Origin: an uncultured Candidatus Saccharibacteria bacterium
Lineage (GTDB): Bacteria; Patescibacteriota; UBA1384; DTJR01
Length of the DNA stretch: 64,000 bases
Reading direction: 5' to 3'
NCBI GenBank assembly: GCA_964487045.1
Contig: CAZAOT010000003.1
Coordinates: forward strand, 72,983 to 136,982
Shown here: positions 2,186 to 32,988 of the stretch, piece after piece
How the letters are laid out: each line of letters opens with the position of its first letter
How positions within the stretch are numbered: the stretch's first letter is position 1
Position numbers and translations under genes: made by a program
The notes under the pieces: model-generated
Told to the model about the DNA's origin: nothing
Database searches by the model: none
What the model saw: only the letters and a program-made list of their open reading frames with translations

Positions 2186-2509
2186 TTACTTCTTTGCGGC
2201 TTTTTTGACTTTGTCGTAGCCTTCTTCTAGCTCTGCCTGAATCTCTTTAGCTTGTTTAATGGTAATTTTCTTACCTTTTTCGTATGTTCCTACTACTTTC
2301 TTGACCGCGTCCTTGTAAGTGTCCTTGGTAAAATCTCCAGCTTTTTCAAGCTCAGCAGCGATTTTATCTTTCATTTCCTCTAGATAGTTAGCGATATCAG
2401 CTCGAGTCTCTTTGCCCGACTTTGGAGCAAACAAAATACCGGCGACTGCTCCGGCCAATGCGCCAACTGCTAGTCCTACTCCTACACCCTTCATCGTTTT
2501 CTTGTCCAT
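2186..2509 (-). CDS. YtxH-domain protein
   Basis: N-terminal Gly/Ala-rich helix GVGVGLAVGALAGAVAGILFAPKSGKETR followed by a K/E-rich helical tail, which is the typical YtxH architecture. Confidence 0.8.
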   Translation of the reverse strand: MDKKTMKGVGVGLAVGALAGAVAGILFAPKSGKETRADIANYLEEMKDKIAAELEKAGDFTKDTYKDAVKKVVGTYEKGKKITIKQAKEIQAELEEGYDKVKKAAKK

Positions 2510-2550
2510 CGTTTCCTTTCGTTAATTGATTTGATTATAGCACAATAGTC

Positions 2551-2583
2551 AAAGGCCGCCTCGTTTATGAAAACTCGGCGGCC
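2551..2583 (-). terminator. hairpin abutting stop of HD-domain gene
   Basis: Arms GGCCGCC (2554-2560) and GGCGGCC (2577-2583). On the minus strand only a short TTT tract follows. Confidence 0.5.
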
Positions 2584-3657
2584 CTAGGATTTGCCCCAAT
2601 CGAGATCGGGGTCTTCGAGGTCGAATGATCGTCCGCGGATGAATGGATAGATGCGGGTGATCGAGAGGTTGAGGTGCTCAATGGTTTCACGGCTGAGGAT
2701 TGGCTTGGGCTTGTTGCGAAGTGCCCCGAACAACCGATGGACTTCATAGTCATTCATCTGCAGCAGCAGAAGCGTTGGATTGGCGTCTTGGAAATGCTCA
2801 GAAGACGAGATGAACTCATAACAGCGTTCAAGCTCGCTGGCAAACGGCTTGCGATTAGCGTTGAGCGGTACGTAACAGTTAGCGTACATCCAATCGCGTA
2901 GTCGCCAGAATTCCTTGGCTTCGTCGCTCTTAGAGAAACTGATCCGACCTACCGATGCCGATTCCCTTACCAGGGCATTTGCGAAGTTGAGCAGCCTCTC
3001 TTCCTTGGTTCGTCCGAAGCACATCGCTTGATGGTCGGCCTCTTCGAAGCCTGCTCCGATCCGCAAACCATCCTCGATGTCAGAGAACATGTAGATTTTG
3101 TCTACGATGTTCACCAGGCGAAACTCCTGAGGAAGCCATATGTACTTCTGCCGAGAAGTGCCTGAGTGGTGGTAGATTCCAAGCAGAGTTTCATAGGCCA
3201 GGTCGAGACCTTTGCCCGAGTGTTCAATTCTCTGTAGGTTCAGGCAGGCGATAATGCGGTGGTCGATCGTCAAACCACACAGCTTCGAGATTGTCTCCTC
3301 TCCAAAATGACCGAAGGGTGCGTGGCCGGTGTCATGCCCTAGCCCAACCGCTTCTGTCAAGTACTCATTTAGCTTGAGGAACCAGGCTATGAGCTTAGCG
3401 AGACTTGCAACCTCCATGATGTGAAGCAGTCGATCATTACTGGTCGATTCTTCTCTTCCGATGAAGACTTGGGTCGTTCCATGCTTGCGAAACAGGGACT
3501 CGCTATTGCCGACCCAGTAAGCATCCTCAATGAAGCCTCGCTTACCGGTTGGTCTCCTTCGCCCTCCCTCTTTCTTTGGTCGTCGTCCGCGACTCATCTC
3601 TTCTTGGAACCGTAGGTGCGCCAAGCACCCACGATATCTCTTGTCGAGGTTTAACAC
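2584..3657 (-). CDS. dGTP triphosphohydrolase-like HD-domain protein, GC-rich cassette 2
   Basis: Motifs TTQVF, HIMEV and GLGHDTGHAPFGH match the dGTPase/SAMHD1-type HD signature. GTG start at 3657 lies 7 nt after GGAGGTG. Composition is GC-rich. Confidence 0.75.
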   Translation of the reverse strand: MLNLDKRYRGCLAHLRFQEEMSRGRRPKKEGGRRRPTGKRGFIEDAYWVGNSESLFRKHGTTQVFIGREESTSNDRLLHIMEVASLAKLIAWFLKLNEYLTEAVGLGHDTGHAPFGHFGEETISKLCGLTIDHRIIACLNLQRIEHSGKGLDLAYETLLGIYHHSGTSRQKYIWLPQEFRLVNIVDKIYMFSDIEDGLRIGAGFEEADHQAMCFGRTKEERLLNFANALVRESASVGRISFSKSDEAKEFWRLRDWMYANCYVPLNANRKPFASELERCYEFISSSEHFQDANPTLLLLQMNDYEVHRLFGALRNKPKPILSRETIEHLNLSITRIYPFIRGRSFDLEDPDLDWGKS

Positions 3658-3690
3658 TAGGACGCACCTCCTTATCGTGGGCTGCCTAGG

Positions 3691-3719
3691 ATTGTAGAGA
3701 ACTTATATTCTTAATTCAA
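3691..3719 (-). promoter_or_regulatory. sigma70-type promoter TTGAAT-17-TACAAT for cassette 2
   Basis: On the minus strand, TTGAAT is at 3719-3714 and TACAAT at 3696-3691, with a 17-nt spacer. Confidence 0.6.
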
Positions 3720-7185: not shown

Positions 7186-7226
7186 GAAAAGAGAAAGGGC
7201 CGCCGTGTCGAATGACATGGCGGCCC
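7186..7226 (-). terminator. intrinsic terminator of cassette 3
   Basis: Arms GGGCCGCC (7197-7204) and GGCGGCCC (7219-7226), extendable to about 13 bp. TTTCTCTTTT follows on the minus strand. Confidence 0.8.
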
Positions 7227-7245
7227 TGGTTGTGCAGTGAGAGCT

Positions 7246-7968
7246 CTAGCTTGGTAGCTGAAGCGGAGTTAGATACTCAGCAGCTCTGGGAGTCGCCTTG
7301 ATGTCAGCTTTGTATCCATAGGTTCTCGCTGTCTCCAGATCCCAAGCGTAACTACCAGCGGGCTGAGTGGGCCTTGCGATGATTCGCGGGTCAAACCCTA
7401 TCTCATTTCCGGTCGTTGCCCAGTCGATATATGGGTTGATGTCAACTTCATACCGGAAAGGATCGGTCCGATCGCCGGCAGCAAGTGTAGCCAGCTCATC
7501 TAGACGATCGTCTGGCCAGTAAACCTTGCTTGTTGTCTGGCGGTTTTCGATCTCGACCCATTCATCGCCAACTGAGATGACTTCCGCTTCGTCGAAATGG
7601 ACAAATGCCTCTTGCGGAATCTCAATCTCCGGAAACATCAACTCCTCGGGACAGAGCTGTTCGAAGAAGGTCGTGCCAAGTAGCGTTATGCTGTCATCCC
7701 CACGTGGGATGACAAAGTAGGGCTGGTTTTCGTATGCGCCCCACTTCTGGCCAGGCCAGAGATAGCCAAGCGCCCAATCACCGTCTTTTTGCTGATAGAC
7801 GAGCCATGCCGCGCCGCTTCGAACTTCCCACGCTACTGAGCAAAAGTTGTGAAAAGCTGGTTCGGCTGGCCGCTCCGGTGATATCCTTAGCAGGAAAGAG
7901 CAGCACATGTCGGCTTTGTACATGAACGAGTCGATGATCCTTGGCCTAAACTGAAGCCGGTTTGGCAT
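7246..7968 (-). CDS. hypothetical protein, GC-rich cassette 3
   Basis: ATG at 7968 lies 6 nt after AAAGGAGG. The track start at 7992 is less well placed. 240 aa, no motif recognised. Confidence 0.6.
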   Translation of the reverse strand: MPNRLQFRPRIIDSFMYKADMCCSFLLRISPERPAEPAFHNFCSVAWEVRSGAAWLVYQQKDGDWALGYLWPGQKWGAYENQPYFVIPRGDDSITLLGTTFFEQLCPEELMFPEIEIPQEAFVHFDEAEVISVGDEWVEIENRQTTSKVYWPDDRLDELATLAAGDRTDPFRYEVDINPYIDWATTGNEIGFDPRIIARPTQPAGSYAWDLETARTYGYKADIKATPRAAEYLTPLQLPS

Positions 7969-8028
7969 GTCTGCCTCCTTTTGTTCTTTCAAATGCTACA
8001 GGGTTGCATAAAGCTTGCCACTTTGCAG

Positions 8029-8581: not shown

Positions 8582-8611
8582 ATTTATCTAAGATTAACAT
8601 TTTGTTTCATA

Positions 8612-8656
8612 AATAAAAAAGAAAGCCCGGGCGCTCCACTGGGGAGGGCTCGGGCT
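8612..8656 (-). terminator. intrinsic terminator of cassette 4
   Basis: Arms AGCCCGGGC (8624-8632) and GCTCGGGCT (8648-8656). TTTCTTTTTT follows on the minus strand. Confidence 0.8.
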
Positions 8657-8678
8657 TGATGAGGCGTGGTAGCGGGTG

Positions 8679-8939
8679 CTACCGGAGGTTTCGGCGCTGA
8701 TCCGCGGTGGGGTTCTTGCCCACGTTTGAGTTGCCGACCGTCCGCTTTCGCACGATCCAGTCGGCAAGGAGCACGAAGGCGCTGATCGTGGCAGTGATGG
8801 CAGTCATGTAGAGCGTCGGCTTGCTCTTAAACATGATGCCAAAAGCGATGAAAAGCGGGGTAGTGGGGAAGAGGAAGAATTTGAACAATCTCCTCTTTCC
8901 CTTGGTGAGAAAAGACTTCGGCTTGAGTGACTTCATCAT
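8679..8939 (-). CDS. small membrane protein (2 predicted TM), GC-rich cassette 4
   Basis: 86 aa with two hydrophobic stretches and basic termini. GC-rich, last gene before the terminator. Confidence 0.55.
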   Translation of the reverse strand: MMKSLKPKSFLTKGKRRLFKFFLFPTTPLFIAFGIMFKSKPTLYMTAITATISAFVLLADWIVRKRTVGNSNVGKNPTADQRRNLR

Positions 8940-8953
8940 AGTCCTCCCTGTTT

Positions 8954-9523
8954 CTAGCCCTTGCAGTCAGGGCATACGATCGTGATTTGGTTTCCTACGC
9001 CGGACCCTGTGTCCGGAATGAAGGGATCTCCACAGCGGAAGCAGTATCTGGGTTCACCTGCAACCAGCTTCTTGTCTGCATCCGAGCAGACCTTGCACTT
9101 GCGGGGATTCCAGAGGTTGCGTCTGCTTGGGGTATAAGCACCGCAATGTGGGCAGTAGAAGTGTGTCATTAGGCGTTGCCCAGTGCTCTTGGCGACAGGC
9201 GGGATCCAGCGCTTGATCGTGAAGCGCTGCTCCAAACCAGGGTGCAACTCTACCGTAGCGCCGTGGCCGCTGGTAGCTCGGACAGCAAAGCCGTTTTCCA
9301 GAAAGAGGTTCGCTATCTGCGCGAGTTCGCCCAGAGGTTCCTGGTTGAGGGCAGTTGCCAACTCAACATAGCATAGTTCTTCTGGAATGCTAGCGGCAGG
9401 CTGGTTGATTTCGACAGCGATACGAGCTTGCTGCTCCTCGGGTAGATTTGCCAATAAGGCAGTAATCCGCCCCTTGAGCGCGTCTGCTTCTTGGCTTGTA
9501 CTGGTGACTCGGGCGCGGATCAT
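8954..9523 (-). CDS. double zinc-ribbon protein, GC-rich cassette 4
   Basis: The C-terminal 70 aa carry four CxxC pairs (CPHC, CKVC, CFRC, CPDC). The N-terminal about 110 aa are unassigned. SD AGGGAG is upstream. Confidence 0.65.
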   Translation of the reverse strand: MIRARVTSTSQEADALKGRITALLANLPEEQQARIAVEINQPAASIPEELCYVELATALNQEPLGELAQIANLFLENGFAVRATSGHGATVELHPGLEQRFTIKRWIPPVAKSTGQRLMTHFYCPHCGAYTPSRRNLWNPRKCKVCSDADKKLVAGEPRYCFRCGDPFIPDTGSGVGNQITIVCPDCKG

Positions 9524-9571
9524 GGTTGCTCCCTATCCTTTTTGGTATGTAAAGGTTCGAACGAACGTTTG

Positions 9572-9600
9572 ATTATATTTGAATTACGTCCGAATGTCAA
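9572..9600 (-). promoter_or_regulatory. perfect consensus promoter TTGACA-17-TATAAT
   Basis: Minus-strand TTGACA is at 9600-9595 and TATAAT at 9577-9572, with a 17-nt spacer, upstream of the zinc-ribbon gene. Confidence 0.7.
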
Positions 9601-9613
9601 TAATTAAGTACAA

Positions 9614-9634
9614 GGGACGCCGGAGGGGCGTCCC
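9614..9634 (-). terminator. hairpin after 9638..9919 gene
   Basis: Arms GGGACGCC and GGCGTCCC. The downstream T tract is weak. Confidence 0.5.
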
Positions 9635-9637
9635 TGA

Positions 9638-9919
9638 TCAGAGCCAGCAGTCGTGGCGAGTGATGATATTTCCGTCATCGCCAATACTGCCAACTTTGCA
9701 TGTTCTTCCGAGACGGCGAAAGCCTCTCATTGCAGGAGCAAATGCGGCTGCACCTAACAATATATAGAAGCTGGTACCAGATATGCCCGAGATGGTAGCG
9801 AAAAGCCAGAACATCTTGGGGTAGCAGATCGCTACAGTCGTTGAAGTGTACGCAACCCCTTTGAGAAGGGGAGCGAGAACGATCGGTCGTGAAACTAATG
9901 ACAGAATTCGACTGATCAT
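9638..9919 (-). CDS. small membrane protein, GC-rich cassette 4
   Basis: 93 aa with hydrophobic helices. SD GGAAGGAG lies 6 nt before the ATG. Confidence 0.55.
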   Translation of the reverse strand: MISRILSLVSRPIVLAPLLKGVAYTSTTVAICYPKMFWLFATISGISGTSFYILLGAAAFAPAMRGFRRLGRTCKVGSIGDDGNIITRHDCWL

Positions 9920-9984
9920 GCGCTTCTCCTTCCGAGGGATATGGTTAAATTATCCTAAAACAAGTTTGTTTTCAACCTGATAGA

Positions 9985-10187: not shown

Positions 10188-10341
10188 TTATTTGGAGTCA
10201 CTTAAGAGCGCGAAAGGCGTAGGCCGAGCTAAGGTCGAGAAAAAAAATCAGCAAAAATTGTCCAACATCTTGATTTTTTGAAAAATAAGTGAATAATGTA
10301 TTATTAATTTGGAATACGTACATTGAAAGAGGTAGGTAGCG

Positions 10342-10761
10342 ATGAGTAAGCGCATCCTGGTGGTTGATGATGAGCGCCACATCGTCCGTCTGGTTAAGCT
10401 CAACCTGGAACGCGCCGGCGGCTATGACGTCCTGACAGCGTACGACGGGATCGAGGCTCTGGGCAAAGTCAAGACCGAGAGCCCCGATATGGTGGTGCTC
10501 GACATCATGATGCCCCGGATGGACGGTTACGAAGTACTGCGTAACTTGCAAGCAGATCCCAGCTGCCAGAACATACCCGTGATCATGCTGACCGGCAAGG
10601 ACCAGGACGCCGACTTCTTCAAGGCCTGGGCCAGTGGGTTGAGGGCATATATGACAAAGCCCTTTGATCCCCAAGAATTGCTGACATTCATCCAACGGAT
10701 CTTCGAGGCCGATCAAATCGGGTATGGGGATGATACAGATGATTCGTGCTTTGAAGTGTAA
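10342..10761 (+). CDS. stand-alone response-regulator receiver (CheY-like), GC-rich cassette 5
   Basis: The acidic pocket and phospho-acceptor pattern ILVVDDE...DMVVLDIMMPRMDG...MLTGK...KPF is present. No output domain and no kinase nearby. Confidence 0.9.
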   Translation: MSKRILVVDDERHIVRLVKLNLERAGGYDVLTAYDGIEALGKVKTESPDMVVLDIMMPRMDGYEVLRNLQADPSCQNIPVIMLTGKDQDADFFKAWASGLRAYMTKPFDPQELLTFIQRIFEADQIGYGDDTDDSCFEV

Positions 10762-10785
10762 TGTAGCTTGCCCCTCTCGATTCCC

Positions 10786-10827
10786 ATGCCCGCATCTGCT
10801 CCGGAGGCTTTGCGGGCATTCTTTTTC
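10786..10827 (+). terminator. intrinsic terminator of cassette 5
   Basis: ATGCCCGCA/TGCGGGCAT stem followed by TCTTTTTC. Confidence 0.85.
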
Positions 10828-13953: not shown

Positions 13954-14070
13954 ATGATTCGAAACGTTGCGATTATTGCTCATGTAGACCCCACACCGCT
14001 CCTTACTGCAAAACGGATTCCATCCTGTTATTGCAGTGCGTCAGGTCGAGGGGCGAGAGATGACAAATAA
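13954..14070 (+). CDS. upstream mini-ORF (38 codons): TypA-like N-terminus (MIRNVAIIAHVD) fused to conserved tail PTPLLTAKRIPSCYCSASGRGA
   Basis: In frame through the 68-nt element, with TAA at 14068-14070. The nearest GGAGG is 17 nt upstream, so translation is uncertain. Confidence 0.35.
   Translation: MIRNVAIIAHVDPTPLLTAKRIPSCYCSASGRGARDDK
13990..14057 (+). repeat. 68-nt conserved hairpin element, copy 2
   Basis: CCCACACCGCTCCTTACTGCAAAACGGATTCCATCCTGTTATTGCAGTGCGTCAGGTCGAGGGGCGAG. The stem is 14006-14014 paired with 14027-14036. Confidence 0.85.
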
Positions 14071-14081
14071 AATTTTGCCAA

Positions 14082-15902
14082 ATGGATATGAATAAAATTA
14101 GAAATGTAGCTATCATAGCTCATGTAGACCACGGAAAGACCACGCTTGTCGATGGTCTATTAAAGCAGTCCCATACTTTTCGTGACAACCAAGCCGAGAT
14201 GAATCAGACGCTCATTATGGACTCAAACGATCAGGAGAGAGAGCGCGGAATTACAATTTTGGCTAAAAATACCGCAGTAAATTACAAAGATACTAAAATT
14301 AATATTATTGATACTCCTGGCCACGCCGATTTCGGTGGGGAGGTGGAGCGAACGCTCAATATGGCAGATGGCGCGATCCTTGTAGTTGATGCTCAAGAAG
14401 GACCAATGCCTCAAACAAAGTTTGTTTTGAAAAAAGCGCTTGATTTAGGGCTAAAGATTATTGTAGTAATAAACAAAATTGATAAGAAAAATGCGCAAGT
14501 TGAAAGTGTTATAGAAAGAACTTCAGATCTATTTCTTGATTTAGCTTCTGATGAGTCACAGCTCGAATTTCCAATTTTGTTTTCAATTGCCAAGCAAGGT
14601 AAGGCTTGGAGCGAAATGCCACAGAATTTTGAAGAAGACGGTGATCTTTCGAAAATTTTTGAAGCAATTTTGCAGTATATTCCTGCGCCAAAAGTCGAAG
14701 AGGGTCCATTTCAGATGCTTGTATCGGCCTTGGATTGGGATAGCTATCAGGGAAAATACGCAATCGGAAAAATTTCAAGAGGAAAAGCGATGGCTGGTCT
14801 TCAGGTGAGTTTGGTAAATGAAGATGGCGTAAAAGAAAATACTCGAATTGATAAGATTTTTGTTAGCAGCGGTTTGGTCAAACAAGAAGTTAAGGAAGCC
14901 GTGTGTGGCGACATTGTTTCAATTACCGGAATTAAGAACGCTGGAATTGGCGAAACAATCGCTGATCAGACGAGTCCCGAGGCTCTGCCGGGCATAAGTA
15001 TAGAAGAGCCGACCCTTTCGATGGCAATTTCAGCCAATACTTCGCCATTTGCTGGCAAGGAAGGTAAGTTTGTTACTGGCCGACAAATTTTAGACAGAAT
15101 TAAAAAAGAACTAGAGACAAACGTTTCGCTAAAATTTAAACAGGGCGAGGAAGGCGAATATATTCTCTCTGGCCGAGGCGAACTTCACTTGTCCGTCTTT
15201 ATTGAAACTCTTCGTAGAGAAGGTTTTGAGCTTCAAGTTGGTAAGCCACAGGTTATTATCAAAGAGATTGATGGCATTAAGAGCGAACCACTTGAAGAAT
15301 TAACGGTTGATGTCGAAGATCAGTATGTAAATAACGTGATCGCCGAGGTTATAAGACGAAAAGGTGTTTTGCATCATCAGAACCCACTTCTTGATGGCAC
15401 GACCAGGCTTATTTTTGAAATTACAACGCGTGGAATGCTCGGTCTTAGAAGCCAACTAATGACTCTTTCGCGCGGAACAGCTGTCGCTAACTCGATATTT
15501 TTAAGATTTGAAAAAGTTATGAGCGAAATTCCAAGACTTCGAAACGGAGTTTTGATCGCTTCTGAAGATGGCAAGGCTGTAACTTATGGGCTTGATATAG
15601 CTCAGGGCCGAGGAATCACATTTATCGAGCCACAACAGCAAGTCTATAAAGGTATGATTATCGGGCTTAATTCAAAAGAGTCTGATATCGAAATCAATGT
15701 AGCCAAAGAGAAGCATTTGACCAATATTCGAGCTGCTTCTTCTGATATGACCACGGTTTTGACCCCAGCAACAATTTTGTCACTTGAACAATGTATTGAC
15801 TTTTTGGAAGATGACGAGCTTCTTGAGGTTACTCCAACGTCACTTCGACTTCGAAAGAAGATACTCGATCCAACGCAGCGAAATAGAGCTAGAATTCGCT
15901 AA
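14082..15902 (+). CDS. typA: translational GTPase TypA/BipA
   Basis: G1 motif AHVDHGKTT, then DTPGHADF and NKID. Length and C-terminal domains are typical of BipA. The start could also be the ATG at 14088. Confidence 0.95.
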   Translation: MDMNKIRNVAIIAHVDHGKTTLVDGLLKQSHTFRDNQAEMNQTLIMDSNDQERERGITILAKNTAVNYKDTKINIIDTPGHADFGGEVERTLNMADGAILVVDAQEGPMPQTKFVLKKALDLGLKIIVVINKIDKKNAQVESVIERTSDLFLDLASDESQLEFPILFSIAKQGKAWSEMPQNFEEDGDLSKIFEAILQYIPAPKVEEGPFQMLVSALDWDSYQGKYAIGKISRGKAMAGLQVSLVNEDGVKENTRIDKIFVSSGLVKQEVKEAVCGDIVSITGIKNAGIGETIADQTSPEALPGISIEEPTLSMAISANTSPFAGKEGKFVTGRQILDRIKKELETNVSLKFKQGEEGEYILSGRGELHLSVFIETLRREGFELQVGKPQVIIKEIDGIKSEPLEELTVDVEDQYVNNVIAEVIRRKGVLHHQNPLLDGTTRLIFEITTRGMLGLRSQLMTLSRGTAVANSIFLRFEKVMSEIPRLRNGVLIASEDGKAVTYGLDIAQGRGITFIEPQQQVYKGMIIGLNSKESDIEINVAKEKHLTNIRAASSDMTTVLTPATILSLEQCIDFLEDDELLEVTPTSLRLRKKILDPTQRNRARIR

Positions 15903-15917: not shown

Positions 15918-15946
15918 TTGACCTTTTTTGAAAAAATAGGTATAAT
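15918..15946 (+). promoter_or_regulatory. promoter TTGACC-17-TATAAT for cassette 6 operon
   Basis: TTGACC at 15918-15923 and TATAAT at 15941-15946. Confidence 0.65.
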
Positions 15947-15988
15947 TTTCTATTGCTCTTTAACAAACAGGGAAAACGAAAGGAAGAC

Positions 15989-16219
15989 ATGCCGACGTCA
16001 ATCGAGACTAAGGCGAGGAATATCGATAGACACTTGCCGGAGATGATGTGCTTGGCGCACTCGTCCGGCTTGCCTTCGATCATCCTTCCGTTTGGCACTT
16101 TTGACCAGCCAACTCAGGAGAAGCTGCGTGACCTAGTGGCCGAGTACGCCAAAGGCAAGGGCCACAAGACGCGCAAGTTCTTGCATCAGACGCGCCTCTA
16201 TCTCGAGGTGAGTATCTAA
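15989..16219 (+). CDS. hypothetical protein (76 aa), GC-rich cassette 6 gene 1
   Basis: ATG at 15989 after AAAGGAAG. GC-rich. No family recognised. Confidence 0.55.
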   Translation: MPTSIETKARNIDRHLPEMMCLAHSSGLPSIILPFGTFDQPTQEKLRDLVAEYAKGKGHKTRKFLHQTRLYLEVSI

Positions 16220-16226
16220 GGAGGGC

Positions 16227-16448
16227 ATGATGCCCAGGATAACCAGAACTGATTCGGCCGGCAATGCTTTGGAGATCGACGGCGCCAAGGTCGTCGCCGG
16301 GCCTTACGGCTCTCGGGCTGAGGTTGTTGTTGCGCACGCAGAGGTTGGGATGGAGTTGGCTTGTCGTTCGGGACGAATTTCAAGCGGGGTCTTTATTGAG
16401 CTCAATGGAAAGCACTATGCTGTCGAGGTCGCGACACAATTGATGTAA
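16227..16448 (+). CDS. hypothetical protein (73 aa), cassette 6 gene 2
   Basis: AAGGAGGG lies 2 nt before the ATG. There is a 7-nt gap to gene 1. Confidence 0.55.
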   Translation: MMPRITRTDSAGNALEIDGAKVVAGPYGSRAEVVVAHAEVGMELACRSGRISSGVFIELNGKHYAVEVATQLM

Positions 16449-16473
16449 GTTGGCCAAAATAGGGAGGCAGATT

Positions 16474-17739
16474 GTGGACAAAGAAGCGATCCAAGGCGCC
16501 CGCAGGGCGCTTCTGCTCAAGAAGCTTGAAGTAGCATCAACGACCAAGGAATGCACCCTTGCGTTCCAGGGTCTCAAGCTCTACAGAGATGACCTTTCGA
16601 TTGTCGCCACTCGTAAGAGAGCGATTGAGCTCGCAGCTTCGGCAGGCGACATGGATGAGGTTCGTCGCTTTCCGTATGATGTGGGTATCTTCTCTCTGGG
16701 AGATCAGGCTTCCGAGTTCTTTCGTAAGGCCATGCTGCTTTGCAGGCCTGAAGAAGTATACGACTTCACAGGCAACTTCGGCTATTACGCCGATGAAGTT
16801 GTTAGCTTCCTTGTCGAGGGGCTTACCGATCCGCTCAAGCTGACTCGACTAGCGATGCGACTCGGAGCGGAGGGTCTGCTTGAGCGCGGACAGGAAGTGA
16901 TCGCTCGGGCTGCTGAACTGGCTGCAAGCTGGGAAGTGTGCGGTTATGTCGGGACGATACACTATGCGCCGCTTCCGACAGGGTTTCTGACCATGGCCGT
17001 CCTTCTCGCTGAGGGGCAGAAGGGTTACGATGCTCCTCTCGAAGTTTGTGGGTGGATGAAGGCTTCGCTCAACGACCCGCTCGAATTCAGACAAGCAGCG
17101 GCTGTTGCCGAGCTGCTTGATGCGCCAAACAAGCGTATCAGGCGGGTAGCCGGAGAGCGGATCAGGCAGGCTTACCAGGAGAAACTGAGCGGCCAAGATG
17201 GCGACTTCTATATCCAAAGCGCCTGGAACGTCGTTTGCGATGCCCGCGATGCGCTTCCGGAACTGGCTGCAGAGCTGACCGCTGATCTCGTGGTGCGTCT
17301 GACAGATGCGGTACCAGCCTGTCAGGACTTTTCGGAGGCAAAGTCGCATCTTGAAGTCGCTTCCGCAATGGAGGACTTCGGGATCGATGGAGTCTACTGG
17401 CCGGCAGCCATGCGTGCGATGGAGCTGGCAGAGGGCTGTGATGATATCCTGGCGTTGGTGCGCCTTGGCATTCATGTCCAGGAGCTCACCGAGGCTGTCC
17501 TGGTAATGGCTGCAACCGAAGATGATATCATTGCAGTCATACAGCGCAACCCGAACTTCTCTGGTGAGTGGACGTTGCCTCTTTGCGAGCGGATCTTCGA
17601 CTATCGGCGCCAGAGGGCGCAGACGATCGAGGACTTCATGATTCTGCATCACCTGACCAAGGACCCGGTCAAACTGGCCGAGGTCGAGGATCGCATCCAG
17701 GAGCTCATCGCTCCATACCATACCGAGCCTGAGGAGTAA
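16474..17739 (+). CDS. hypothetical all-alpha protein (about 421 aa), cassette 6 gene 3
   Basis: GTG at 16474 lies 6 nt after GGGAGG and is in frame with the track start at 16450. The sequence is acidic and Leu/Ala-rich. A terminator follows. Confidence 0.65.
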   Translation: MDKEAIQGARRALLLKKLEVASTTKECTLAFQGLKLYRDDLSIVATRKRAIELAASAGDMDEVRRFPYDVGIFSLGDQASEFFRKAMLLCRPEEVYDFTGNFGYYADEVVSFLVEGLTDPLKLTRLAMRLGAEGLLERGQEVIARAAELAASWEVCGYVGTIHYAPLPTGFLTMAVLLAEGQKGYDAPLEVCGWMKASLNDPLEFRQAAAVAELLDAPNKRIRRVAGERIRQAYQEKLSGQDGDFYIQSAWNVVCDARDALPELAAELTADLVVRLTDAVPACQDFSEAKSHLEVASAMEDFGIDGVYWPAAMRAMELAEGCDDILALVRLGIHVQELTEAVLVMAATEDDIIAVIQRNPNFSGEWTLPLCERIFDYRRQRAQTIEDFMILHHLTKDPVKLAEVEDRIQELIAPYHTEPEE

Positions 17740-17763
17740 CTTCCCCTGGTTCATGGCTCTACA

Positions 17764-17800
17764 ACGGCTCCCGGCCTAGTGCTTGGGAGCCGTTTTCTTT
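17764..17800 (+). terminator. intrinsic terminator of cassette 6
   Basis: ACGGCTCCC/GGGAGCCGT stem followed by TTTTCTTT. Confidence 0.85.
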
Positions 17801-17852
17801 ACCCTATTACCTTGACAAATGATTCTGATCAGCTAGAATCATACTCGTCTAT

Positions 17853-18962
17853 ATGGATAATATTCTCGAGCCTCCCAGTACGCATAGGCGAGGCCTAAAA
17901 ATAAATAGAATACGACAAAGCGCTCCAAGCGCTTTTGCCGGTTTTGGATTAAAAATCCTCAATAATTTGGAAAACTTGCGTCTATCGATCAGGAAACTGA
18001 TCTTTTTTATTAGGGGTCATATTATTTCGTTTAAAGAATTTGCTAAATTGCACGGTGTTAACCGCTCGCTTGCTTATAAATTTGCGATTGTAGCGGCCAT
18101 TGCACTTCTTCCAGTTCTCTCTAAAGTCACAGCTGAAGATCAGGCTTATGAAGATGTAATTCACTATAGTCAGACAATTGACCCGGTTGAGTCTGCTCGA
18201 TTCGCAGTTTATTTTTCCGGCTATACTCCTGGGCTTTATATTGATGCCGACCAAGTTGCCCTAAATGCAGTTACTAATAACGAGTCATATACTCTGGAGC
18301 AGCAGTTAGCGGTGAATCAAGGTAAGGATTACGCGGTTGAGGGTCGTCAGGAACCGACATATGTTCTAAAATCAGGCGAAACGATTGCTGACGTTGCTTC
18401 TAAGTTTGACTTACATGTCGGAACTCTAGTTGATGCCAACGGACTTGATCCGGTGAATTTGAAGAATGTGAGACCAGGTACAACCTTGATGATTCCTTCA
18501 TCGGATACCAATACTTCAAATGACTGGCTGATTGCAATCAACAAAGATGAAGCTGAGAAGAAGCAAAAAGCGGCTGAGGAAGCAGCCAAAAAGAAAGCGG
18601 AACAGGCCAAGAAGGTAGCTTCAGCGAGCAACAATGTAACAGCTACTGGAACGGTTGCCGGAGCAACGACAAGAAGGCAGGTCAGTTCTGAAGTGACCGT
18701 TATCGGAACTTCTTATTCACAGTGTGTTCCTTGGGCGAGAGAAAATTCCGGAATTGCAATTCAAGGATATGCGGGCAATATTTCTGCTACTCAATCAGAG
18801 CCGAGGGTTGGGGGAGTAGCTCTTGATCGATTTTATGGCCATGCCTCGGTGGTAGTAGAGGTTGGCTCTGATTATATAGTTGTACATGAAGCCAACTGGA
18901 TCCATGGCAAGATTACCAAAAGAAAAGTTTCTAAAGATGCTATCCGCGGATACGTGTATTAG
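17853..18962 (+). CDS. LysM + CHAP-domain peptidoglycan hydrolase, membrane anchored
   Basis: LysM segment YVLKSGETIADVASKFDLHVGTLVDANG...LMIP. C-terminal CHAP-like segment QCVPWARE...GHASVV...HEANW. TTGACA-16-TAGAAT lies upstream at 17811-17838. Confidence 0.75.
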   Translation: MDNILEPPSTHRRGLKINRIRQSAPSAFAGFGLKILNNLENLRLSIRKLIFFIRGHIISFKEFAKLHGVNRSLAYKFAIVAAIALLPVLSKVTAEDQAYEDVIHYSQTIDPVESARFAVYFSGYTPGLYIDADQVALNAVTNNESYTLEQQLAVNQGKDYAVEGRQEPTYVLKSGETIADVASKFDLHVGTLVDANGLDPVNLKNVRPGTTLMIPSSDTNTSNDWLIAINKDEAEKKQKAAEEAAKKKAEQAKKVASASNNVTATGTVAGATTRRQVSSEVTVIGTSYSQCVPWARENSGIAIQGYAGNISATQSEPRVGGVALDRFYGHASVVVEVGSDYIVVHEANWIHGKITKRKVSKDAIRGYVY

Positions 18963-19009: not shown

Positions 19010-20209
19010 ATGAAAAAAATTGCTTTAAGTTTACTTGCGATATTTGTATTATTTTCTTTTGTTGCAATTAAGCCAGTTCTAGCCGAGGATAGCCAAAATA
19101 CGATAAAGATCTATGAATTTTGGAGTAAATATTGTCCTCACTGCAAGGCCGAAAATGAATTTTTAACTAAGATTTCTAAGGAGAGAGGGGACTTTGAAGT
19201 AATTTCTTATGAAGTTACCTCAGATCAAGGTAGCGCAGCTTTATTTAAAAAATTCTCCGATGCGTGTGGTAACAAGGGCTATGGTGTCCCAGCGCTCTAT
19301 ATTGGAGATCGATCGGTAATAGGATTTGAGAGTGCCGAAACAACGGGTAAGGAGATCGTTACGGTGCTTGATTCATTTAAAGGCAAAGATTATCCAGATC
19401 CACTGAAAATTGTCGAGAGTGGGGGAGGCTTCAAGTCGGGGAGTGAGCTCTGCAGCAAAGAATCTATTGAGACAAAAAGAAAAATTCCGCTACTTGGCGA
19501 GGTGGATTTAGCTAAATTTTCTGCACCGGCTTTAGCGGTGGTTCTTGGAACGGTCGATGGATTTAACCCATGCGCAATGTGGGCGCTAGTGGCTCTGCTT
19601 ACTCTGCTCGTCTCGCTTGGTAGCCGAAAAAGGTTATTACTGGTCGGAGGTACTTTCCTAATCACCTCTTGGCTGATCACCTTCTTCTTCTTGTCGGCCT
19701 TTATGAATGCATTTACATTTGTAAAATTTGATTTAGCGATGAGGATTGTGATTGGGGTTGTAGCGATCTATACCTCATATCAATTATTTAAAAGTTATCA
19801 GAAAGAAACCGAAGAGTGTAAAGTTAATTCAGGCAAGGGAAGAATTTATAAACAGATAGAAAAGCTCTCTAGCTCCAAGGTGATCCCCTTCTTGATCTTT
19901 GGTGCGATCGCTCTTGCGCTGATGGTCAATGTCGTAGAATTTATGTGCTCGATCAATCTTCCGGTTGTTTTCACTAAAGTTCTCTCAATGGTGAATGTTA
20001 GTCCTCTGGGACGATATCTGTATATCGCTCTGTACGACGTTTTTTATATGCTCGACGATATCATCGTATTCTTGATCGCTCTTTTCTCGATGAAGGCTTT
20101 TACTGGATTTAATCAAAAATACACCCGTTTTACGAAATTAGTGGGTGCTATCGTGATGTTTATTTTGGCTGTGATGTTACTGTTCTTTCCGAGGCTATTG
20201 GCGTTTTAG
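19010..20209 (+). CDS. thioredoxin-fold (CPHC) domain fused to DsbD/CcdA-like membrane domain
   Basis: Signal peptide, then WSKYCPHCKAE, then six hydrophobic helices including FNPCAMW. Confidence 0.6.
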   Translation: MKKIALSLLAIFVLFSFVAIKPVLAEDSQNTIKIYEFWSKYCPHCKAENEFLTKISKERGDFEVISYEVTSDQGSAALFKKFSDACGNKGYGVPALYIGDRSVIGFESAETTGKEIVTVLDSFKGKDYPDPLKIVESGGGFKSGSELCSKESIETKRKIPLLGEVDLAKFSAPALAVVLGTVDGFNPCAMWALVALLTLLVSLGSRKRLLLVGGTFLITSWLITFFFLSAFMNAFTFVKFDLAMRIVIGVVAIYTSYQLFKSYQKETEECKVNSGKGRIYKQIEKLSSSKVIPFLIFGAIALALMVNVVEFMCSINLPVVFTKVLSMVNVSPLGRYLYIALYDVFYMLDDIIVFLIALFSMKAFTGFNQKYTRFTKLVGAIVMFILAVMLLFFPRLLAF

Positions 20210-20389: not shown

Positions 20390-20418
20390 TTGACTTGTCT
20401 GCTGATTTTGTCTAATAT
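20390..20418 (+). promoter_or_regulatory. promoter TTGACT-17-TAATAT for cassette 7
   Basis: TTGACT at 20390-20395 and TAATAT at 20413-20418. Confidence 0.6.
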
Positions 20419-20476
20419 CTGCTTATCGGAGGCTTTGATCCTTCGGTATTTCTTCAAATCGGCAGGAGGGAGCGTC

Positions 20477-20851
20477 ATGCCGAGGGATTCGATTCTCTAC
20501 GAAAAAGCCAGGGCGAGGTGGGAGTATGCTTCACATCTTCCATCTCGCAGTACAGTCAGGCAGTATTCGCTCAAGTGTTTCGCATTAGTATACCCGGTCG
20601 AAGTTTTGCGGGAATACTGGCGTGTAGACGCGTTGTCGCGCCAGAGTCTAATGGTATCGTCTCACAGCTTTGCCCCTTCTCCCGCTGAACTTGCAGCCAT
20701 GGCAGAAGGGCGTGACCGTAATGAACGGCGCGCAAATCAAGCCAGGGCGAGACTCGAAAGGATGGCGACGGAGCACGGGGTGGACCTAGATGCGATGGCT
20801 GATGATATCGCATTCGTTTGGCACAACTGGAGTCTGCTTGAGCTCGAGTAG
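20477..20851 (+). CDS. hypothetical protein (124 aa), GC-rich cassette 7
   Basis: ATG at 20477 lies 6 nt after GGAGGGAG. The C-terminal half is Arg/Ala-rich. Confidence 0.55.
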   Translation: MPRDSILYEKARARWEYASHLPSRSTVRQYSLKCFALVYPVEVLREYWRVDALSRQSLMVSSHSFAPSPAELAAMAEGRDRNERRANQARARLERMATEHGVDLDAMADDIAFVWHNWSLLELE

Positions 20852-20870
20852 CTCAAACCAGTTGCGTCTC

Positions 20871-20902
20871 AAGGCGAGCGCTATGCGTTCGCCTTCATTT
20901 TT
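20871..20902 (+). terminator. intrinsic terminator of cassette 7
   Basis: AAGGCGAGCG/GCGTTCGCCTT stem followed by CATTTTT. Confidence 0.7.
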
Positions 20903-30137: not shown

Positions 30138-31556
30138 ATGAAAAAAGGTTTAGCGTCAAAGCTTAATCTATTGGCGCACCCTACTTATTTGTTGATCTTT
30201 TTGACTCTAGGGTTGATTGTCAGTGTAAATTTACCCTTATGGCTAATTTATTTATCTTTTTACCTCACTTTTATTGGCATTTTGTTGGTTCTATTTAAAA
30301 TTAAAAGTGGTGCTTGTTTAGTTTTTCTTGGTTTTGGAATTTTGATCGGAAGCTATCATTTATATAGTGTCGATCATCCCCTTCCAAGCGGTTGTGATGA
30401 TGCGAAAGTTCTTTCAAGGGCAAAGAAATTTAAGACAGGGTTTGTATATAAAATCAAGGGTTCTAAAGAAGTTCTTCTCTACAGCCAAAGCGATGATTTC
30501 AAGATCGCTGATAAAGTGCGAGTATGTTTTGGTAAGCCACTTTTACTCGAGGCAAGGGATCGCAGATATCTTCTATCTCAACTACATAGCCAAAACCTGA
30601 TGGATGCAAGTGAAATAAAGTTACTTGAGCCGGGCAAGGGGGTGAAGAATTATTTAGAACTTCTTAGCGATAAATTTGCAGGCGATGCTGCAAAACTTTT
30701 CTCGGGAGATCAGGGCACTTTAGCTTATGGTGTGATTTTTGGCGGCGGTGATTTTTCAAAAGAGCTCAAGAATGACTTTAAGCGAAGTGGCACAACTCAC
30801 ATCGTTGCAGTCTCGGGTTACAACGTATCGATTATCACTGCTTGGATGTTTGATTTTCTGCGCCAAATAAGTAAGAATTTTTCGGGAATATTTTCTGTCT
30901 TGGCGCTAGTGGGGTTTTATTTTATTACTGGCGGATCGGCTTCGGTTCTTCGCGCTTCGGTCATGGGAGTGATTATTCTTCTTACTAAATTTATAGGTCG
31001 CAAGGTTTCGCCTCTTCATTTATTAATGCTAGCGGCGAGTTTGATTTTAGCTTTTAATCCTTTTGCTCTTTATGATTGGGGATTTCAACTTTCCTTCTTG
31101 GCAACAGCCGGATTATTTTTTCTTGCACCTGCGATTGAAAGCTTGCTCTCTAGAGTAAAATTCAATAAAAGTTTAATTAAGACTTTTAGCGAAACGATCG
31201 GTGCACAAATTTTTGTCCTGCCGATACTTGTGGCAAATTTTGGTTCATTTTCTATCATCTCGCCACTTACTAATCTTTTGATCCTGCCCCTTATTCCCCT
31301 TTTAATGAGCTTAGTCTTTATTTCACTTATAGGTTTTACCCTCTATCATCCGCTGGGAATATTTTTATCTGGAATAACAAAAATATTATTAGCTTATGTA
31401 ATTTGGATCGTAAAATTAAGTTCACTGCTGCCGTTTGCGAGTCTTAATTATAAACTTGATCCCTTGATCGCTATTCCTTTTGGATATGGCATAATCATAC
31501 TATTAACTTATTACTTAAGAAGAAGATATCTTGTTAAATCAAAACAAAATATTTGA
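30138..31556 (+). CDS. comEC: ComEC/Rec2 DNA-uptake channel, membrane (competence) domain only
   Basis: GTTHIVAVSGYNVSI motif and multiple TM helices. The MBL domain is missing. Confidence 0.82.
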   Translation: MKKGLASKLNLLAHPTYLLIFLTLGLIVSVNLPLWLIYLSFYLTFIGILLVLFKIKSGACLVFLGFGILIGSYHLYSVDHPLPSGCDDAKVLSRAKKFKTGFVYKIKGSKEVLLYSQSDDFKIADKVRVCFGKPLLLEARDRRYLLSQLHSQNLMDASEIKLLEPGKGVKNYLELLSDKFAGDAAKLFSGDQGTLAYGVIFGGGDFSKELKNDFKRSGTTHIVAVSGYNVSIITAWMFDFLRQISKNFSGIFSVLALVGFYFITGGSASVLRASVMGVIILLTKFIGRKVSPLHLLMLAASLILAFNPFALYDWGFQLSFLATAGLFFLAPAIESLLSRVKFNKSLIKTFSETIGAQIFVLPILVANFGSFSIISPLTNLLILPLIPLLMSLVFISLIGFTLYHPLGIFLSGITKILLAYVIWIVKLSSLLPFASLNYKLDPLIAIPFGYGIIILLTYYLRRRYLVKSKQNI

Positions 31557-32394
31557 CTACCTGCTGCTAGCAGTTGTTTTAGTTGGTCTTTTTCTGTATT
31601 CGACAATATATCAAAATGCTCAAGCCAACATTGACCCTGCCTCAGCCAAAATTAGTTTTTTGGATGTCGGCCAAGCGGATTGCGCATTAGTTAATTTGCC
31701 AAATAATAAGCAAATTCTGATCGATGCAGGCAAATCGTCAGACGTTGTCTCGAAAATAAGATCGAGGATGCCGGCCTTTGATTCGGAGATAGAAGCGGTT
31801 TTCTTGAGTCATCCAGATAGTGACCATGTTGGAGGGTTTGTCTCGGTTCTTAATTCTTACAAAGTCGACAAAGTTTATCTGAACACCGATCAATCTGACT
31901 CTAAGACTTTTGACGCGATTTTAGCTGAAATGGATAAGCAAAAAATTTCTCACGAAGTGATCGGCTCTGGACGAGACGTGTATATAGAAGATCTGCGAAT
32001 CAAAACGCTTTGGCCTTCGGAAAATAGTGGTTCCTTAAGTGAAAATAATCGCTCCTTGGTGCTAAAGCTAATGATCAAATCGGGAGTCGCTCTTTTTACG
32101 GGAGATCTCGAGATAGAAGGGCAGAATAAATTAATGAGTGAATATAAGGAAGAAGATCTTTTGGCAGATTTGTATAAAGTTCCACATCACGGAGCCTCTG
32201 GAGCGTGGAATGAAAGCTTTGCCCAGAAGGTTAAACCCAAAAATGCTGTGATTTCGGTAGGTAATAATTCATATGGTCATCCTGGGCAAAGTACAATTAC
32301 GGGACTTGAGAAGATAGGAAGTAAGGTTTATCGCACAGATCAGCTAGGTACGATTGATTTTGTCCTAAGTGAAGCGGGATTTGTGTCAAAATAA
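31531..32394 (+). CDS. ComEC C-terminal MBL-fold domain encoded as separate ORF
   Basis: FLDVGQADC, HPDSDHVGG and VPHHGA motifs. It overlaps the previous ORF by 26 nt in the +1 frame. The start is a TTG. Confidence 0.78.
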   Translation: MLNQNKIFDYLLLAVVLVGLFLYSTIYQNAQANIDPASAKISFLDVGQADCALVNLPNNKQILIDAGKSSDVVSKIRSRMPAFDSEIEAVFLSHPDSDHVGGFVSVLNSYKVDKVYLNTDQSDSKTFDAILAEMDKQKISHEVIGSGRDVYIEDLRIKTLWPSENSGSLSENNRSLVLKLMIKSGVALFTGDLEIEGQNKLMSEYKEEDLLADLYKVPHHGASGAWNESFAQKVKPKNAVISVGNNSYGHPGQSTITGLEKIGSKVYRTDQLGTIDFVLSEAGFVSK

Positions 32395-32398
32395 TACT

Positions 32399-32436
32399 TA
32401 AAAAAGAGGAAAGCCCCCCGCCATGCGGCAGGGGGC
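32399..32436 (-). terminator. intrinsic terminator of cassette 8 (probably bidirectional)
   Basis: GCCCCCCGCC/GGCAGGGGGC stem. TTTCCTCTTTTTT follows on the minus strand. Confidence 0.8.
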
Positions 32437-32461
32437 CTTGTTTCCCGGTGCGATGAAAGTC

Positions 32462-32985: not shown

Positions 32986-32988
32986 GGT

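Follow-up and report, generated by a model that had tools for sequence, protein, structure and literature searches.

Between typA and a gene for a LysM-containing protein, the window (the whole stretch of 64,000 nucleotides that was analyzed) carries a three-gene operon, g1-g2-g3, which encodes proteins of 76, 73, and 421 amino acids and forms a single unit that has a promoter and a terminator of its own. The features of the operon and its surroundings are as follows:

14082-15902, plus strand: typA/bipA, the left backbone flank (41% GC; GTP_EFTU 1e-58, BipA_C 8e-42)
15918-15946, plus strand: sigma-70-type promoter, TTGACC-17-TATAAT, near-consensus (11/12)
15947-15988, plus strand: short, AT-rich leader with a weak Shine-Dalgarno (SD) site, AAGGAAG, before g1
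15989-16219, plus strand: g1, 76 aa
16227-16448, plus strand: g2, 73 aa, GGAGG SD
16474-17739, plus strand: g3, 421 aa, GTG start, GGAGG SD
17763-17802, plus strand: intrinsic terminator, a 12-bp stem (AACGGCTCCC.../...GGGAGCCGTT) and a T tract
17812-18962, plus strand: right neighbor, gene for a LysM/weak-CHAP protein, with its own promoter at 17812-17839 and the open reading frame (ORF) at 17853-18962 (44% GC)
19010-20209, plus strand: right anchor (trx), a thioredoxin-like N-terminus on a multi-pass membrane protein (sub-threshold Pfam matches)

Most of this architecture agrees with the original prediction. The promoter scores highest of all promoter-like sites within 13.7-21 kb, and it is kept alongside the operon in lineages A (that of the window), B, and C (ATTGAYYTT...TATAATTTGCT); the beginning of the leader also aligns with lineages B and C. 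The three genes are as tightly packed as had been claimed, with gaps of 7 nt between g1 and g2 and 25 nt between g2 and g3, and the expected strong terminator is present, its stem (17763-17794) containing 7 GC pairs and being followed by TTTTCTTT. An equivalent GC-rich hairpin with a T tract lies 3' of g3 in lineages B and C, and these hairpins resemble plain terminators. A GGAGG-type SD site had been proposed for each gene; g2 and g3 have one, but g1 has only the weaker AAGGAAG. The short gaps and strong SD sites suggest that expression may be coupled and stoichiometric. Gene callers take the second ATG of g2, which yields 72 aa, and an in-frame TTG at 16450 would give g3 a length of 429 aa; alignment of homologues and public gene calls support 421 aa as the probable length.

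The three genes are more than chance ORFs. The g3 product aligns over its full length with two homologues without a single frame break (37-41% identity, E values of 1e-70 to 3e-80), pN (0.40-0.44) is far below pS (0.70-0.78) in the operon genes, and identical operon DNA was assembled independently out of four sequencing runs. A 301-aa antisense ORF (16849-17754) overlaps g3 and has a similar GC profile, which raises the question of whether the genes were mis-called, either because the antisense ORF is the true gene or because the region is non-coding GC-rich DNA. However, it is the plus-strand proteins that match homologues end to end, the AlphaFold (AF2) model of g3 has a mean pLDDT of 78.6, and the SD sites, promoter, and terminator all lie on the plus strand. 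The antisense ORF is of the kind that usually arises as a by-product where coding DNA is rich in GC, and the mis-call reading is effectively refuted already.

The operon is accessory and occupies a variable slot between typA and trx. Both anchors are well conserved: lineages C and E have a typA with 87-92% identity (87% in E), and trx is 75% identical in C and 82% in E. In lineage E, a close relative, the interval lacks the operon and holds an unrelated 87-aa GC-rich gene, whose homology to g1 or g2 was rejected by hhalign; in lineage C the interval contains an additional 117-aa gene, and in lineage B the product of a divergent upstream gene is large and has a hydrophobic anchor at its N-terminus. 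The operon had been described as wedged between typA and a peptidoglycan hydrolase gene. The typA side of this description stands, whereas the right-hand gene has a LysM match (1.5e-6) and only a sub-threshold CHAP match (0.0096). This gene lies 3' of the operon in A and B and is absent from C and E; it is a low-GC member of the backbone, yet itself variable. No integrase, transposase, or known defense gene was seen adjoining the operon, and no terminal repeats surround it. Diversification of the DGR type or driven by repeats was considered and rejected: the window contains no template/variable repeat pair. The window does contain comEC, a DNA-uptake gene, and the closest relatives of a backbone gene come mostly from CPR/DPANN-type MAGs.

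The composition of the operon sets it apart from its surroundings. Its GC content is 55-57% versus 41% for the window, and positions 16001-17900 form the window's longest patch with at least 48% GC (mean of 56% versus 40.9% overall). GC3 is 0.59-0.75 in the operon versus 0.35-0.36 in typA and lysM, and across all lineages it is 0.5-0.8 in the operon versus 0.32-0.49 in the backbone. The length of this patch, the variable slot, and the lack of the operon in lineage E bear out its description as the largest foreign-looking unit. On the other hand, it is not a one-off recent island, as the promoter-operon unit is also found in lineages with saturated synonymous sites. The window holds further GC-rich cassettes, one of which, containing a response regulator, sits at another locus in L097. 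Such cassettes are scattered singly between backbone genes rather than arrayed as integron gene cassettes are, and no paralogues or shared sequences were found among the GC-rich patches of the window. These single-unit cassettes differ between close relatives and remain GC-rich despite saturated divergence.

The g1 protein is basic (pI 9.3) and has a 74-aa homologue in lineage B with 35% identity and a conserved C-terminal QTRxYLEV. The g2 protein consists of a small domain in which the motif V(I/V)(A/C)GP ... G(K/E)xY(A/G/C)V(E/Q) is conserved; its predicted fold is beta3-alpha-beta2, for which the model gave no fold match. In lineages B and D this domain is fused behind a 100-aa N-terminal extension, whereas g2 of the window is without any N-terminal region. 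Homology between g1 and g2 was rejected by hhalign. In agreement with its earlier description as an acidic helical-repeat protein, g3 has a pI of 4.7, 13% Ala, and 12% Leu, and its predicted structure (mean pLDDT 78.6) is an all-helical alpha-solenoid of 24 helices. Conservation of g3 peaks in the C-terminal ~60 residues (FSGEWTxPLC ... EDFxxLHHLTKDP ... LIAP[FY]). Both ends are conserved, and the middle is variable and modeled with lower confidence, a pattern as expected of a putative binding scaffold. A Foldseek search with the g3 model, the check that had been suggested, returned generic solenoid matches including OGT-TPR and IFIT; at TM-scores of no more than 0.32 and 9-16% identity, this TPR/HEAT-like likeness is one of fold class only.

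Membership of any known family is not supported, which agrees with the initial impression that the products have no assignable motif. Searches of Pfam, NCBIfam, PHROGs, and PADLOC with the three proteins and every homologue gave nothing above threshold, toxin, antitoxin, immunity, and defense models included; PHROGs matches appeared only at E values of 0.2 or higher, and PADLOC-DB v2 had 0 matches at E ≤ 1 for g1, g2, g3, and the homologues from lineages B, C, and D. Three g3 homologues had no Pfam match at E ≤ 1, repeat families included, and profiles of g1, g2, and g3 matched nothing among PDB sequences. No RHH/HTH signature or family match was found for g1 or g2 in the Pfam, NCBIfam, PHROGs, PADLOC, and PDB profile searches, every g3 lacks a Walker A motif, and no metal motif was found in it. 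No homology to housekeeping families was found either. The sole toxin-like match, to GH-E, is sub-threshold (E value of 0.0047) and falls inside the conserved rather than the variable part. No signal peptide or membrane segment was detected in g1, g2, or g3 (maximal KD19 of 1.15, 0.74, and 1.44, respectively).

The distribution of the operon is lineage-restricted. An exhaustive search of 1.8 billion representatives identified only two true relatives of g3 (37-41% identity), and the fourth lineage came from g2 searches. A word-indexed search of 5.8 billion proteins with g3 and with a 3-sequence profile returned only the protein itself and the known relatives, and a scan of JGI metagenomes with the g3 profile returned nothing. 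GTDB species genomes contain no g3 relative. The 80 nearest GTDB trx loci are only 31-38% identical and are without g1, g2, and g3; thus, the clade is unrepresented in GTDB species genomes. Elsewhere the genes do occur together, so that neither refuting outcome that had been named (housekeeping homology or a lack of co-occurrence) was observed: g2 lies next to g3 in each of the four lineages, and g1 occurs in two of the three lineages that can be judged (A and B; it was lost in C, and the contig of lineage D is cut upstream). The suggested link to defense is not supported, with no PADLOC match in the three families and no relative of g1, g2, or g3 among IMG/VR viral contigs, GenBank phages, or PLSDB plasmids.

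The operon proteins diverge much faster than those of the backbone: pN is 0.40-0.44 for g3 and 0.42 for g1 versus 0.08-0.09 for typA, 0.14 for trx, and 0.22 for the response regulator from a GC-rich cassette. When within-lineage microdiversity was examined for dN/dS, all contigs of one lineage proved 100% identical; an apparent variant in L094 turned out to be a scaffold gap of Ns. With four lineages, each clonal in our data, the co-variation of g2 and g3 is read from one pair, B versus D. Between these two, nucleotide identity is 80-85% in the N-terminal extension of g2 and ~80% over the g2-g3 junction and the first 12 codons of g3, and these conserved segments have a dS of 0.70-0.73 and a dN of 0.09-0.12. 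In contrast, the C-domain of g2 and the body of g3 are less than 50% identical, with dN of 0.6-0.8 and saturated pS of 0.73-0.79 (alignment error under 40% identity inflates pS). Saturated segments next to segments with a dS of ~0.7 imply that the C-domain of g2 and the body of g3 have a deeper coalescence; the two would have been replaced together. The B-D mosaic therefore indicates probable allele replacement of a putatively cognate g2-g3 pair.

Our preferred reading, to which we give a probability of about 0.35, is that g2 and g3 form a cytoplasmic partner module swapped by recombination and putatively of a conflict type, either toxin-antitoxin or defense-like. Matched-pair replacement is typical of partner-specific conflict modules, and the probable replacement of g3 along with the C-domain of g2 may lend indirect support to the conflict-system idea, which we infer from the sequences. 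The operon would then be an accessory cassette, restricted by lineage, in a Patescibacteria-like bacterium, and one strong, putatively constitutive promoter would drive the production of three proteins, all soluble and cytoplasmic. The beta3-alpha-beta2 protein g2 and the acidic solenoid g3 would most likely bind each other as a cognate pair, with g3 as a scaffold that may sequester or sense through its variable middle, and the basic 76-aa g1 may be a dispensable accessory or regulator. We propose that the pair remains matched through recombination that exchanges the C-domain of g2 along with the body of g3, probably after DNA uptake, with conserved backbone genes and intra-operon segments likely serving as homology arms. 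Putative roles include toxin-antitoxin/addiction, toxin-immunity, and abortive-infection-type defense. An acidic 421-aa solenoid is, however, atypical for a toxin or an antitoxin.

Known conflict systems offer partial parallels. Tripartite type II toxin-antitoxin systems (omega-epsilon-zeta and the paaR-paaA-parE type) share with the operon the small-small-large order, a single promoter, tight spacing, an accessory and patchy distribution, a dispensable first small gene (g1 is lost in lineage C), and a (here putative) cognate pair that needs to stay matched. However, the operon proteins have no sequence or fold similarity to them: zeta toxin is a P-loop UNAG kinase, whereas g3 is an acidic 421-aa solenoid without a P-loop, kinase, or nuclease motif, and the family searches found no RHH/HTH signature in g1 or g2. 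Polymorphic toxin/immunity systems (CdiA-CT/CdiI, Rhs-CT/RhsI) and co-diversifying colicin E-immunity pairs resemble the g2 of lineages B and D in combining a conserved N-terminal part with a highly divergent C-domain, next to a co-divergent downstream gene (g3) that is swapped along by recombination, as seen in B versus D only. Unlike the polymorphic systems, g1, g2, and g3 have no secretion/trafficking domain, pre-toxin motif, signal peptide, or recognized toxin domain; homology between alleles extends to the variable parts of the operon, the partner encoded downstream is large, at 421 aa, and g2 of the window lineage is without the N-terminal part. As for fold, the 24 helices of the g3 model are arranged in hairpin repeats as in TPR/HEAT/PPR-like alpha-solenoids, but g3 has no Pfam repeat match at E ≤ 1, which distinguishes it from the TPR/HEAT/Sel1/PPR families. 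Finally, like the genomic islands that Patescibacteria acquired horizontally (PMC12455944), the operon deviates in composition from the streamlined, low-GC genome around it and is exchanged probably mostly among Patescibacteria, and horizontal gene transfer (HGT) between Patescibacteria is documented (PMC12455944). Unlike those islands, it is only 1.9 kb long, has no integrase, occupies an intergenic slot flanked by conserved genes, and exceeds the backbone in GC content in all lineages even though divergence is saturated.

Other explanations would account for parts of these observations. The proteins could be host-interaction factors with the partner cell of a presumably epibiotic bacterium as their target or site of action; host-specific arms races would then be the cause of diversification and would also explain the wall-binding LysM/CHAP-like neighbor. 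The narrow clade, fast protein divergence, and allele replacement fit this explanation, as do the LysM/CHAP-like gene adjoining the operon in A and B, the anchored large protein encoded upstream in B, and the CPR/DPANN-type relatives of the backbone gene. We still consider it unlikely: the three proteins lack signal peptides and membrane segments, no secretion-system gene adjoins the operon, and the LysM gene does not stay with the operon, which occurs without it in C, whereas E lacks both. The operon could also encode an ordinary accessory complex, a cellular scaffold or regulator confined to its lineage, such as an adaptor serving a backbone process. Weak constraint would then account for its fast evolution, and ordinary homologous recombination for the mosaic. 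Retention of the promoter-operon unit across lineages with saturated synonymous divergence, pN below pS throughout, the strongly conserved C-terminal 60 residues of g3, and a solenoid fold typical of scaffolds all speak for such a role; it is made quite unlikely by the absence of the operon from an equally close relative, the joint replacement of two variable segments around a junction left conserved, and the foreign composition in every lineage.

In a further alternative, the operon would be transient passenger DNA without a role in the cell, a remnant or cargo of an unsampled GC-richer mobile element or virus. The persistence of a GC3 of 0.5-0.8 in all lineages against a backbone at 0.32-0.49, the other GC-rich cassettes in the window, and the different location of the response regulator in L097 are consistent with it, and HGT islands are common in Patescibacteria (PMC12455944). 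However, IMG/VR, GenBank phages, and PLSDB hold no relative, there is no PHROG match, and no integrase or transposase was found adjoining. Moreover, none of the ORFs is disrupted, pN stays below pS, and three deeply diverged lineages have kept a promoter of host type. We therefore regard passenger DNA as very unlikely.

The partner-module reading can be taken further. In its fullest form, g2 and g3 would be an unrecognized two-partner conflict system (putatively toxin-antitoxin- or abortive-infection-like) of a Patescibacteria clade, built from a new beta3-alpha-beta2 domain and a new alpha-solenoid, with alleles swapped by transformation-driven recombination at intergenic slots, and the operon would be one member of a wider pool of GC-rich cassettes circulating among low-GC genomes without ameliorating. 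As a whole, this proposal is speculative, and we think it doubtful that all of it holds. If the operon were instead an ordinary scaffold, its value would be limited to the annotation of three ORFan families.

The genomes of Patescibacteria/CPR bacteria are small, and roughly half of the genes in them cannot be assigned; to our knowledge, very little is known about how these bacteria handle phages, mobile DNA, and hosts. Against this background, the locus is compact and experimentally tractable (1.9 kb with a promoter of its own, encoding three soluble proteins), it offers three new protein families together with natural allelic variants for the study of specificity, and it makes a clear prediction, namely that g2 binds g3 and that alleles are matched. 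Beyond this operon, the pattern of GC-rich cassettes could show how streamlined, naturally competent bacteria maintain a flexible gene pool.

The stretch from promoter to terminator forms one unit, with three genes (g1, g2, and g3) read in the same direction:

15918-15946, + strand: near-consensus sigma-70-type promoter, TTGACC-17-TATAAT (11/12 positions), followed by a 42-nt leader to g1
15989-16219, + strand: g1, 76 aa, weaker Shine-Dalgarno sequence (AAGGAAG)
16227-16448, + strand: g2, 73 aa, GGAGG Shine-Dalgarno sequence
16474-17739, + strand: g3, 421 aa, GTG start, GGAGG Shine-Dalgarno sequence
17763-17802, + strand: terminator, a hairpin with a 12-bp stem and then a T tract

The promoter is the top-scoring site within 7.3 kb, and the intergenic gaps are 7 nt (g1-g2) and 25 nt (g2-g3). 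The original prediction described the promoter, the tight packing, gene sizes, gaps, and terminator almost to the base; its GGAGG-type Shine-Dalgarno sequence before every gene holds for g2 and g3 but not for g1. Of the two neighbors that it named, typA/bipA is clear (GTP_EFTU, 1e-58; BipA_C, 8e-42), whereas the peptidoglycan hydrolase side shows a LysM match (1.5e-6) with CHAP below threshold (0.0096). The start of g3 was placed at the GTG rather than at the in-frame TTG at 16450, because public gene calls and homologue N-termini agree on it.

The three genes are real, and it is exceedingly improbable that they were mis-called: the operon DNA is 100% identical in independent assemblies from four sequencing runs; g3 can be aligned over its full length, in an unbroken frame, with two distant homologues (E values of 3e-80 and 1e-70; identity of 37-41% by BLAST and 39-42% by phmmer); its nonsynonymous divergence (pN 0.40-0.44) is far under the synonymous one (pS 0.70-0.78); and an AlphaFold2 model built from just three sequences reaches a mean pLDDT of 78.6. 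A 301-aa antisense ORF was rejected as a gene, being an expected by-product of GC-rich coding DNA.

All three proteins are soluble. As predicted, they lack an assignable motif: neither they nor their homologues match Pfam, NCBIfam, PHROGs, PADLOC, or PDB sequences, and judged by these searches they are three uncatalogued protein families. Operons made up of ORFans are frequent in genomes of this kind. The description of the large protein as an acidic, Leu/Ala-rich, scaffold-like helical-repeat protein agrees with its pI (4.7), its composition, and its predicted fold, a 24-helix solenoid in the AlphaFold2 model. It has no membrane segment, and neither a Walker A nor a metal motif was found in it. 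Conservation in g3 peaks in the C-terminal ~60 residues (FSGEWTxPLC...EDFxxLHHLTKDP...LIAP[F/Y]), and its middle, roughly residues 200-345, combines the greatest variability with the lowest model confidence. The g2 product is a domain of ~65 residues in which the motif V(I/V)(A/C)GP ... G(K/E)xY(A/G/C)V(E/Q) is conserved, and g1 is basic (pI 9.3), with a single known homologue (35% identity) that has the C-terminal motif QTRxYLEV in common with it.

A word-indexed search of 5.8 billion proteins with g3 returned only itself; HMMER, run exhaustively over 1.84 billion representatives, brought up two true relatives and no more, and a g2 profile search added a fourth lineage; GTDB species genomes, IMG/VR, GenBank phages, and PLSDB plasmids yielded nothing. 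Gene order in the four lineages is as follows (lysM, the LysM gene; trx, a backbone gene for a thioredoxin-like membrane protein that bounds the variable slot on the right):

Lineage A (the window): typA, promoter, g1, g2, g3, lysM, trx
Lineage B (ENA contigs, one of them 264 kb long): inositol phosphatase (- strand), 792-aa surface-type protein (- strand), promoter, g1, g2 with a 100-aa N-terminal extension, g3, lysM, trx ... dnaJ
Lineage C (JGI; one of the samples came from iron plaque on rice roots): typA, promoter, g2, g3, additional 117-aa gene (GC-rich), trx; g1 and lysM both missing
Lineage D (a single 1.1-kb contig): g2 with the N-terminal extension, then g3 (cut)

The expected co-occurrence of the trio is borne out for g2 and g3, which are adjacent in 4/4 lineages, and for g1 in A and B; g1 is missing from C and is therefore dispensable, and the lineage D contig breaks off immediately before g2. 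The promoter (ATTGAYYTT...TATAATTTGCT) can be aligned across A, B, and C despite the different upstream gene in B, and the terminator type is conserved too. The 117-aa ORF of lineage C (L009 2103-2456) takes the place of lysM between g3 and trx; it matches no family, and none of the fetched loci contains a relative. The N-terminal extension of g2 (L092 1390-1700 and L091 34-350; homologues P0012 and P0014) is ~83% identical between B and D, models poorly (pLDDT < 50), and its matches all stay under threshold (Pfam GH-E nuclease, E 0.0047; NCBIfam IS66 TnpA, E 0.0033).

Between A, B, C, and E (a close relative without the operon), every gene has reached saturation at its synonymous sites (pS 0.70-0.79), and pN rises from typA (0.08-0.09) through trx (0.14) and a response-regulator cassette (0.22) to g3 (0.40-0.44) and g1 (0.42). 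The one informative pair of lineages is B and D, which are closer to each other.

Segments of the B and D operons compared (pS is inflated by alignment error at low identity)
g2 N-terminal extension: nucleotide identity 80-85%, dS 0.73, dN 0.12
g2 C-domain: nucleotide identity below 50%, pS 0.73 (saturated), dN 0.60
g2-g3 junction and first 12 g3 codons: about 80%, dS 0.70, dN 0.09
g3 body: nucleotide identity below 50%, pS 0.79 (saturated), dN 0.82

Faster amino-acid change alone would leave dS near 0.7 in the variable segments; it is saturated there instead, which points to an older ancestry for the g2 C-domain and g3 body than for the neighboring segments. In this one lineage pair, the substitution pattern thus indicates that both were imported by recombination and replaced jointly. 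Such replacement is how a cognate pair whose specificities need to match would behave.

Among known systems, the operon appears to behave most like tripartite type II TA operons, with their small-small-large order, dispensable first gene, and matched pair, or like polymorphic toxin-immunity and colicin-immunity loci, with their conserved N-terminal part, variable C-domain, and co-varying downstream gene. However, membership fails wherever it can be tested: the operon proteins contain no toxin, antitoxin, or immunity domain and no P-loop, and the operon has no secretion or trafficking module. The modeled g3 fold is of the same class as TPR/HEAT-type solenoids, without a sequence match to any repeat family. 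The operon thus stands outside any known family.

Our preferred reading, which we hold tentatively (probability of roughly 0.35), is a g2-g3 partner module under intracellular conflict and exchanged by recombination. The g2 product would bind g3, probably via the variable middle of g3, and g1 may be an accessory factor or regulator. Alleles would be exchanged through homologous recombination following DNA uptake; the window carries comEC (30138-32394). This gene is split into two overlapping ORFs, 30138-31556 (Competence domain, 1.3e-54) and 31531-32394 (metallo-beta-lactamase domain, 2.1e-12). The selective driver might be TA or addiction, toxin-immunity, or abortive-infection-like defense. 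Of the conflict or defense system originally proposed, conflict gains, though only indirectly, from the joint replacement of g2 and g3, whereas nothing directly supports defense, for which PADLOC gave no match. That the operon encodes a host-interaction factor is unlikely, since none of the three proteins has an export signal and linkage to LysM is inconsistent across lineages. The absence of the operon from lineage E and the replacement of g3 along with the g2 C-domain make a lineage-specific scaffold under weak constraint rather improbable, and we regard functionless mobile cargo as less probable again, given intact ORFs, a conserved promoter, and no viral or plasmid relatives.

At 40.9% GC overall, the window includes eight main patches in which GC reaches 52-58%; the operon lies in the longest of these (16001-17900, 56% GC), in keeping with its description as the largest foreign-looking unit. 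The seven others lie at 1801-2200, 2401-3700, 7201-8000, 8601-9900, 10301-10800, 20401-20900, and 32301-33400; most look like single transcription units among low-GC backbone genes, and no paralogy was found among the patches. Their ORFs include:

2584-3657, - strand: HD-domain ORF
7246-7992, - strand: ORF without assignment
8954-9523, - strand: Cys-rich zinc-ribbon-like ORF
9638-9919, - strand: ORF without assignment
10342-10761, + strand: response-regulator receiver
20478-20851, + strand: ORF between a promoter (20390) and a terminator (20871-20895) of its own
32462-32968, - strand: ORF whose product resembles a secreted protein rich in Gly, Tyr, and Cys
32989-33348, - strand: ORF

A 67-nt inverted repeat (7024-7090/13988-14054, 91% complementary) encloses 6.9 kb with three GC-rich patches. 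Its right arm lies directly 3' of a 34-nt, 82%-identical duplicate (13957-13990) of the typA 5' coding end (14097-14130), and a short pseudo-start ORF arises upstream of the real typA; together these may have been left behind by an inversion or insertion.

In the lineage E contig (L097), a metagenome sequence from an equally close relative, the backbone genes run inositol phosphatase, typA, trx, 185-aa gene, dnaJ, with typA 87% and trx 82% identical to those of the window. Its typA-trx spacing is only about 480 bp (9462-9940) and holds an unrelated 87-aa GC-rich ORF (9569-9832) with its own terminator, which hhalign does not relate to g1 or g2; g1, g2, g3, lysM, and a counterpart of the 20478-20851 cassette are all absent from this region. 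By this comparison, the typA-trx interval is a slot whose GC-rich cargo differs between A, C, and E, which upholds the predicted foreign island context. In every lineage (window, L005, L009, L091, L097), GC3 is 0.50-0.79 in cassette genes versus 0.32-0.49 in the backbone, although inter-lineage synonymous sites are saturated. Vertical descent under the backbone mutation bias should have erased this gap. Either the cassettes keep arriving anew from a pool richer in GC, or their high GC is held by selection; neither explanation is easily reconciled with the AT-rich promoter, which is conserved and moves together with the operon. A copy of the response-regulator gene, 71.5% identical, sits at another locus of L097 (11947-12402), between dnaJ and the homologue of the 185-aa gene; alignment is confined to the ORF and does not extend into the flanks, which suggests that cassettes relocate or are acquired independently. 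Horizontal gene transfer is documented in Patescibacteria (PMC12455944), and as a general source of the patches it fits with this relocated copy and with a 66% GC L-fucose-isomerase-like gene (Fucose_iso_N1, 4e-30; L097 3850-5568) within ~41% GC backbone. The latter shows ordinary metabolic genes to be part of the GC-rich cargo.
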